Shown piece by piece: positions 43,003 to 44,699 of a stretch of DNA of 64,000 nt (positions are counted from its first letter, which is position 1; each line of letters starts with the position of its first letter). Location of the stretch: assembly GCF_024298765.1 (NCBI RefSeq), contig NZ_CP101210.1; one strand, given 5' to 3'. Source of the DNA: Escherichia coli. Lineage in GTDB: Bacteria; Pseudomonadota; Gammaproteobacteria; Enterobacterales; Enterobacteriaceae. The position numbers were made by a program, and so were the translations under genes. Under the pieces are notes generated by a model. It saw only the letters and a list, made by a program, of their open reading frames with translations. It was not told the DNA's origin and made no database searches.

Positions 43003-43121
43003 GTCATACTCTCCTTTCGTTGTTATCGCCCAGAAGTAAAACTAACGTCATTGTAGGGAGCAGAAATGACAGAAATATTATGATTACGGTAGGGATAGCC
43101 GTTGCCGGCTTGGATTTGCCC

Positions 43122-44027
43122 CTATATTTCCAGACATCTGTTATCACTTAACCCATTACAAGCCCGCTGCCGCAGATATTCCCGTGGCGAGCGATAACCC
43201 AGCGCACTATGCGGATGCCATTCGTTATAATGCTCGAACGCCTCTGCAAGGTTCTTTGCTGCCGTTAACCCGTCTGGTTTGGGCATGATACTGATGTAGT
43301 CACGCTTTATCGTTTTCACGAAGCTCTCTGCGATTCCGTTACTCTCCGGACTCCGCACCGCCGTGTTCTTCGGTTCAAGTCCCAACATCCGGGCGAACTG
43401 GCGTGTTTCATTAGCCCGGTAGCATGAACCATTATCCGTCAGCCACTCCACTGGAGACGACGGAAGATCGTTGCCGAAGCGGCGTTCCACCGCTCCCAGC
43501 ATGACGTCCTGTACTGTTTCACTGTTGAAGCCGCCGGTAGTGACCGCCCAGTGCAGTGCCTCACGATCACAGCAGTCCAGCGCGAACGTGACACGCAGTC
43601 TCTCTCCGTTATCACAGCAGAACTCGAACCCGTCAGAGCACCATCGCTGATTGCTTTCTTTCACGGCCACTCTGCCTGTATGTGCCCGTTTCGATGGCGG
43701 TACAGCAGGTTTTCGCTCAAGCAACAGCGCATTCTGGCGCATGATCCGGTAAACACGTTTGGCATTGATCGCAGGCATACCATCAAGTTCTGCTTGTCTG
43801 CGAAGCAGCGCCCATACCCGACGATAACCATACGTGGGCAGCTCTCCGATAACATGGTGTATACGGAGAAGCACATCCGTATCATCAGTGTGACGACTGC
43901 GGCGGCCATCCATCCAGTCATCGGTTCGTCTGAGAATGACGTGCAACTGCGCACGCGACACCCGGAGACAACGGCTGACTAAGCTTACTCCCCATCCCCG
44001 GGCAATAAGGGCGCGTGCGCTATCCAC
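43122..44027 (-). CDS. insD: IS2 InsD (OrfB, transposase catalytic part)
   Basis: 301 aa matching IS2 InsD ([30 protein letters not shown]...). Confidence 0.9.
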
Positions 44028-44395
44028 TTTTTTGCCCGTCCATATTCAACGGCTTCTTTGAGGAGTTCATTTTCCATCGTTTTCTTGCCGAGCAGGCGCT
44101 GGAGTTCTTTAATCTGCTTCATGGCGGCAGCAAGTTCAGAGGCAGGAACAACCTGTTCTCCGGCGGCGACAGCAGTAAGACTTCCTTCCTGGTATTGCTT
44201 ACGCCAGAGAAATAACTGGCTGGCTGCTACACCATGTTGCCGGGCAACGAGGGAGACCGTCATCCCCGGTTCAAAGCTCTGCTGAACAATTGCGATCTTT
44301 TCCTGTGTGGTACGCCGTCTGCGTTTCTCCGGTCCTAAGACATCAATCATCTGCTCTCCAATGACTAGTCTAAAAACTAGTATTAAGACTATCAC
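43985..44395 (-). CDS. insC: IS2 InsC (OrfA)
   Basis: Matches IS2 InsC ([56 protein letters not shown]...). Confidence 0.9.
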
Positions 44396-44699
44396 TTAAA
44401 TAAGTGATACTGGTTGTCTGGAGATTCAGGGGGCCAGTCTACGGCTTCCCCGCCATGTCAACGCCGGTATTTATGGTTTCTGTTTGCTTTTCTGTAAAAA
44501 TAAAGGGGAGAGACGACGGTACTATAAACAACCATGATGAATCTCATCTATTCGGCCCAGATGAAAGACGCGCGTGAGGCTCTTGTTCGTTAAGCGGATA
44601 CGTATATCCTGTACAATAATCAGATATACCTCACAGGGTCTAACACTTTATCATCAACGAGTTGCAGATCAGATAGTCATACGGTTGCTGCGTGCTTTA

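Follow-up and report, generated by a model that had tools for sequence, protein, structure and literature searches.

A simple IS2 insertion at the edge of an IS110-family relic and 108 bp ahead of the start of a phytase-like gene in Escherichia coli

The insertion sequence IS2, a member of the IS3 family, transposes by a copy-out/paste-in route via a minicircle, with the donor copy staying in place (PMC3299598). Its terminal inverted repeats are 41 and 42 bp long, and the right one (IRR) takes part in the formation of Pjunc, a junction promoter with an absolute requirement for a 17-nt spacer; the element's own promoter is weak and is repressed by OrfA (PMC3299598). Related promoters have been described in cases where IS2 activated adjacent genes: for ampC (Jaurin and Normark 1983), acrEF, and neoR, the activation involved a fusion promoter that combined the −35 hexamer of IRR with a correctly spaced −10 hexamer in the flanking DNA (PMC9330008). 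The other described system that bears on the locus considered here is the Pho box, the core of which is represented by the heptamer CTGTCAT (PMC2648988, PMC4415409).

The window, i.e., the entire 64,000-nucleotide stretch of E. coli DNA that was analyzed, contains an IS2 copy located between a gene coding for a phytase-like protein and an IS110-family relic. The reading favored here, to which a probability of roughly 90% can be assigned, is that this copy derives from a single insertion into the pentamer CGGCT at the edge of the relic, followed by inheritance within a lineage and later conversion of some copies, with little effect on the phytase-like gene. IS2 is a common element, found in 4853 of the 5426 complete E. 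coli genomes, and the insertion itself is an ordinary, textbook one that is already known and annotated in public genomes.

The element is complete (1331 bp, positions 43111..44441, minus strand), has the length and the termini of the IS2A copy of E. coli K-12, and shows 99.9% identity to the RefSeq copies labelled “IS3-like element IS2 family transposase”; the RefSeq annotation of this same copy includes a programmed frameshift. When aligned with the curated K-12 IS2A, it matched over 1331/1331 bp in an ungapped alignment with 8 mismatches, each of them silent or non-coding, and the 30-bp termini were the same in both elements (TAGACTGGCCCCC... and ...GGGGCAAATCCA). By the published lengths (PMC3299598), the 41-bp IRR, which faces the phytase-like gene, occupies positions 43111..43151, and the 42-bp left inverted repeat (IRL), which includes the weak inward promoter region PIRL, occupies positions 44400..44441, both on the minus strand. 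The two are imperfect repeats whose alignment needs one indel, and the element has the 5′-TA/TG...CA-3′ ends expected of IS2. Within IRR, the hexamer TGGAAA (43132..43127, minus strand) corresponds to the outward −35 reported in PMC9330008.

The coding part of the element consists of two overlapping open reading frames, both on the minus strand. The first one, orfA (43985..44350), encodes the 121-aa InsA protein with an HTH_Tnp_1 domain (PF01527, 1.9e-19) that is identical to the K-12 InsC1; the second one, orfB (43122..44027), encodes the DDE integrase core (rve; PF00665, PF13683, PF13276), which is identical to the K-12 InsD1, so that neither protein differs from its IS2A counterpart in a single residue. 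The slippery heptamer A AAA AAG (44027..44033, minus strand) is in the correct phase for a −1 frameshift, which would produce a 409-aa OrfAB fusion, as reconstructed from the sequence. The window copy thus combines full-length identity to IS2, inverted repeats, overlapping frames with a frameshift, and a 5-bp duplication, and it looks functional, with all the sequence requirements for transposition by way of a minicircle and Pjunc, including TGGAAA in IRR and TAGACT at the tip of IRL, intact.

An earlier note on this DNA had described the element as an exact 1331-bp IS2. The length, the termini, and the boundaries bear this out, but the word “exact” slightly overstates the match, as base 43794 is a T that silently changes CAG to CAA at Gln78 of orfB. 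All five same-site copies that were aligned base by base have a C at this position, and no 100% match to the window element was seen among the IS2 copies listed from the complete-genome collection. The T at 43794 probably indicates that the source genome lies outside that collection; otherwise, it would be a sequencing error.

The two copies of the target-site duplication, CGGCT, occupy positions 43106..43110 on the left and 44442..44446 on the right, as read directly from the flanks. The direct repeat is exactly 5 bp long and cannot be extended to 6 or more, which confirms the CGGCT that the earlier note had placed on both sides, leaves its coordinates exact, and rules out a misassigned boundary. 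A random 5-bp match has a probability of 1/1024, and a chance origin of the repeat is excluded because the empty-site sequence exists uninterrupted in other genomes. The empty site was built in silico by deleting IS2 and one CGGCT, and the resulting 1400-bp query produced single-piece matches with 100% identity on many complete E. coli chromosomes. Counts were then obtained by comparing 80-bp junction-specific queries with the 5426 complete E. coli genomes. The empty junction was found in 205 of them, in each case with an uninterrupted site and CGGCT in a single copy, which supplies the comparison with strains lacking the insertion that the earlier note had called for. The left (filled) junction was found in 18 genomes and the right one in 21, the latter comprising those 18 along with E371 and two E166 assemblies. 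Any part of the locus was present in 227 genomes, so that the filled site is seen in ∼8% of the locus carriers. Strain HS4, which appeared to have a filled site in a 2.8-kb search, was rejected as such, as its IS2 is a separate insertion 3′ of the phytase-like gene, and it is left out of the count of 18.

The filled-site isolates come from chicken, human, dog, and wastewater sources in several countries, and the records labelled O78:H4 are split between the two states, with APEC E12049 filled and APEC E14033 empty. The window differs from the filled-site strain 104 in a single base (43794) over 19 kb (33400-52543). From window position 52544 on, strain 104 differs throughout in an ungapped comparison; an indel is therefore present at that point, or the island continues with a different module. 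Given the ratio of 205 empty to 18 filled sites and the flanks matching those of the empty-site strains, the filled state can be considered derived and a minority one. Together with the intact 5-bp duplication and the identity of the flanks to those of the empty sites, this polymorphism upholds the previous description of the event as a simple and relatively recent transposition. As judged from these comparisons, the insertion is simple and derived, and it appears to have been passed on within a minority lineage instead of being confined to a single strain.

The DNA on the far side of the insertion is the remnant of another mobile element. The IS110-family relic (44442..45698, minus strand), recognized by its annotation and by its 86-91% identity to intact elements, includes a pseudogene with a frameshift and an internal stop (44697-45698, minus strand) and a 3′ non-coding tail that extends from position 44696 down to the IS2 target (44442-44696 plus 43107-43110, minus strand). 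Three intact plasmid-borne relatives of the IS110 family show this 86-91% identity to the relic from position 45080 through the 3′ non-coding tail, and in all three the homology ends at ...GGGGAAGCC, which corresponds to window positions 44443 and 43107. The CGGCT target spans this homology break, with 4 bp within the relic and 1 bp beyond it. The three relatives remain alike for 29-38 nt past the break, so in the empty-site ancestor the extreme tip of the relic must have already been cut off or exchanged for other DNA. Before the arrival of IS2, the phytase-like gene was preceded by only ∼104 bp of DNA not derived from insertion sequences. Accordingly, the placement of the insertion between the phytase-like gene and the relic is correct as to position but not as to neutral intervening DNA, as IS2 sits on the very edge of the relic.

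The tail of the relic contains a perfect outward TTGACA hexamer (44461..44456, minus strand), 13 nt from the end of the homology. This hexamer was considered as a native −35 displaced by IS2 and rejected, as the empty site contains no −10-like hexamer 16-18 nt downstream of it. Circle-junction promoters have been described in the IS1111 family (PMC9330008), and if the relic belongs to that group, the hexamer could be the −35 half of such a promoter. When the empty-site locus and an intact IS110-family relative were compared with Rfam to find a known RNA in the 3′ tail, nothing relevant was returned. A recurring pairing of IS2-like and IS110-family elements on plasmids (H35, H36) was also rejected as a parallel, since these plasmid regions lack collinearity with the window and are merely rich in IS elements. 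The surrounding island is a mosaic that includes fec, pgt, a PTS/transketolase module, a YadA-like gene, a gene for a TonB-dependent receptor, and much IS debris, and the window contains no tRNA gene that would mark the integration site of the island. Between the IS110-family relic and a group of toxin-gene fragments, near the putatively Pho-regulated phytase-like gene, there is an orphan ugpB gene (45833-47149, minus strand) with no annotated ugpA, ugpE, or ugpC downstream. The ugpB product is a glycerol-3-phosphate binding protein, which in K-12 is encoded in the Pho-regulated ugp operon.

The phytase-like gene (41659..43002, minus strand; WP_000551919.1) is intact and encodes a 447-aa protein with a signal-peptide-like N terminus and a PF13449 domain (5.4e-61). 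Its ATG lies at position 43002 on the minus strand, in agreement with the previously noted distance of 108 bp between IS2 and the gene start. The same protein, WP_000551919.1, is annotated both in filled-site strains and in two strains that are empty at the window site, CS5L and HS4; being common to all of these, the gene shows no decay. Its nearest relatives beyond E. coli are found in Serratia (92-93% amino acid identity) and Yersinia (∼83%). The name of the PF13449 family hints at a function in phosphate metabolism; a literature search that combined this protein family name with the Pho regulon returned nothing.

The phytase-like gene is preceded by what appears to be its own promoter. Alignment of the upstream regions with those of Serratia and Yersinia revealed conservation limited to the promoter-proximal ∼80 bp, which include a block (43050..43083, minus strand) that holds a Pho-box-like element (TCATAATATTTCTGTCATTTCT) and is kept in Serratia, Yersinia, Entomohabitans, Samsonia, and Providencia. 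In the window, this block contains the promoter-proximal heptamer CTGTCAT (43072..43066) followed, after a 10-nt gap, by the −10-like hexamer TACAAT (43055..43050), with no −35. The same arrangement is seen across the five genera, where (C/T)TGTCA(T/C) is found exactly 10 nt ahead of TATAGT, TACAAT, or TATGAT, and the Pho-box-like element is located ∼70-90 nt upstream of the gene start in the compared loci. The 22-bp Pho-box-like element of the window begins 27 bp from the IS2 end, and the −10 of the gene is 55 nt away from that end. Based on the conserved spacing, the promoter of the phytase-like gene is probably PhoB dependent, although the poor distal repeat (3/7) makes this dependence a putative one.

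The arrangement raises the question of whether IS2 could drive the phytase-like gene. The orientation is potentially activating, in that IRR and its outward −35 point toward the gene and the transposase genes are read in the same direction as the gene. However, the sequences found in the flank at 16, 17, and 18 nt from TGGAAA are AGCCGG, GCCGGC, and CCGGCA, none of which is −10-like, and no IS2-flank fusion promoter is predicted, because the hexamer at the 17-nt spacing falls on GCCGGC. A strict scan of the region 42900-44750 for sigma-70 promoters and intrinsic terminators detected no consensus promoter and no terminator. A relaxed scan near the gene yielded a sole weak candidate, CCGGCA-17-AATCAT (7/12), which is present in the filled and the empty site alike. 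The earlier suggestion that the outward promoter activity of IS2 could alter the expression of the gene is thus sound with respect to orientation, but it is weakened by the absence of a fusion promoter and by the intact conserved promoter block of the gene. Weak read-through from the OrfA-repressed promoter of IS2 into the gene is possible, and it could exceed a trivial level because no terminator is predicted at the IS2 end. Judging from this geometry, the phytase-like gene is most likely little affected by the insertion.

These observations bear on the first alternative, according to which IS2 acts as a mobile activator that, through the −35 of IRR or an internal outward promoter, makes the phytase-like gene expressed independently of phosphate and has been selected for that. 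Such a scheme would draw on the adjacency of IRR to the gene and their shared direction of transcription, on the fusion promoters on record for ampC, acrEF, and neoR (PMC9330008), on the lack of a predicted terminator all the way from orfB to the gene, and on the retention of the insertion in 18 genomes that span several hosts and countries. It is nevertheless unlikely: no −10-like hexamer is found at any of the three spacings from TGGAAA, the lone weak candidate is also part of the empty site, the native IS2 promoter is weak and OrfA repressed (PMC3299598), and the insertion has reached merely ∼8% of the locus carriers.

The second alternative concerns the same-site copies that differ from the window element. 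In strains LH10-b-1 and AR13438, the junctions, the repeat, and the flanks are the same as in the window, but the IS2 interiors contain 23 and 10 differences, respectively, which cluster in overlapping internal tracts (equivalent to window positions 43332-44264) and leave both ends unchanged. For these mosaic copies, the pattern suggests gene conversion by other IS2 copies, which fits better than reinsertion. In E371, whose IS2 differs from the window copy at 16 positions, the right junction is retained, and the left flank is replaced by unrelated DNA beside a gene of the inovirus Gp2 family, with no CGGCT (locus positions 6001-7336). The two E166 assemblies match the E371 pattern, as judged from their partial coverage of the locus. 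The left flank in these strains was probably lost through IS2-IS2 recombination, in which the side of the locus with the phytase-like gene would have been deleted or relocated.

Two more IS2 insertions have been identified close to the window site. The one in HS4 (99.4% identity) lies at 41647-41651, just 3′ of the phytase-like gene, with the target-site duplication ATGCT; the one in CS5L is a frameshifted 1335-bp variant (95.4% identity) that was inserted in the opposite orientation at 44564-44568, with the duplication AAAGA. Both are independent of the window insertion, which brings the number of independent IS2 insertions inside 3 kb to three, and the 5-bp size of the duplication is also seen at HS4, CS5L, and the K-12 IS2A. 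It could be proposed that the site is a hot spot and that the copies in LH10-b-1, AR13438, and E371 represent independent insertions of different IS2 variants. Interiors that differ at 23, 10, and 16 positions between identical flanks, the HS4 and CS5L insertions within 3 kb, and a target pentamer that straddles the end of the IS110-family homology would be in line with this proposal. Even so, it is quite improbable, considering that the same-site copies share base-exact junctions, orientation, and the CGGCT repeat, and that overlapping internal tracts with unchanged ends are the pattern left by gene conversion. Moreover, no resemblance to an IS2 end is seen in any of the three targets, as the scores for a sequence similar to an inverted repeat that could serve as an attractant were at or below the shuffle means, and the chance that an intergenic insertion falls no more than 5 bp from the point where the homology of the relic breaks off, calculated after the fact, is ∼3%. 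The clustering of IS2 insertions is taken here to mean that IS-rich non-coding DNA tolerates them. A speculative idea with very low odds is that IS2 did not land at random, given the three independent insertions inside 3 kb and the position of this one on the very base where the homology of the relic ends. IS2 might then have a structural preference for the termini of other elements or for the scars left at their junctions, or, in avian-associated E. coli, selection might have favored cutting a secreted, Pho-regulated enzyme loose from the surrounding DNA.

Between repeats of 5 bp, precise excision is a very rare event. The last scheme, in which the filled state would be the original one and such excision would have produced the 205 empty sites, would yield exactly the observed empty sequence, but its probability is close to nil, as there are 205 empty sites against 18 filled ones, the empty-site records span several named serotypes and many hosts, the copy-out/paste-in mode keeps the donor copy in place (PMC3299598), and excision would have to recur many times.

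Under the favored reading of a single insertion followed by inheritance, the course of events can be pictured as follows. A functional-looking IS2 would have entered CGGCT once, at the outer edge of the older IS110-family relic in the mosaic island, upstream of a phytase-like gene that was presumably acquired horizontally. The minicircle copy-out/paste-in route, established for IS2 in general, would apply at this site as well, and a staggered cut of the target would account for the 5-bp duplication. The recipient strain would have already had the island, and the insertion would then have been passed down a minority lineage, many members of which are avian. Afterwards, the internal sequence was likely exchanged with other IS2 copies in some strains, and the left flank was lost in E371 and E166, presumably by IS2-IS2 recombination. 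Expression of the phytase-like gene would be little changed, with its probably PhoB-dependent promoter intact between IS2 and the ATG, with the DNA displaced by IS2 apparently consisting of nothing but IS debris, and with at most weak, InsA-repressed IS2 transcription expected to reach the gene.

As such, the insertion offers a clean presence/absence marker of one minority sublineage of E. coli with many avian members. It also provides a worked example of IS2 biology that includes the 5-bp duplication, probable later gene conversion among the copies, and the IS-associated rearrangements in E371 and E166. A more useful by-product of the analysis is the conserved Pho-box-like promoter ahead of the PF13449 “phytase-like” gene. 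This promoter suggests that the poorly characterized secreted protein encoded by this gene participates in the phosphate starvation response of Serratia, Yersinia, and these E. coli strains. The idea of Pho regulation of this gene stands independently of IS2.

Comparison with the best-described systems places the locus as follows. The spacing in the Pho-box-like element of the phytase-like gene is the same as in the K-12 promoters of phoA (TTGTCAC-N10-TATAGT) and pstS (CTGTCAC-N10-TATTTT). Unlike phoA, however, the second repeat of the phytase-like gene, located 11 bp upstream (TCATAAT), matches at 3/7 positions, compared with 7/7 in phoA and 5/7 in the promoter-proximal pstS box. With the fusion promoters of ampC, acrEF, and neoR, the window insertion shares the orientation only, the flank at the required spacing being GCCGGC. 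The closest counterpart of the element is IS2A of E. coli K-12 MG1655 (NC_000913.3, 381260-382590), which is like the window IS2 in length, 41/42-bp inverted repeats, open reading frames, frameshift, and proteins. The two copies differ in the eight nucleotide changes, which are silent or non-coding, in their genomic location, and in their 5-bp target repeats, ATTAC for IS2A and CGGCT for the window IS2.
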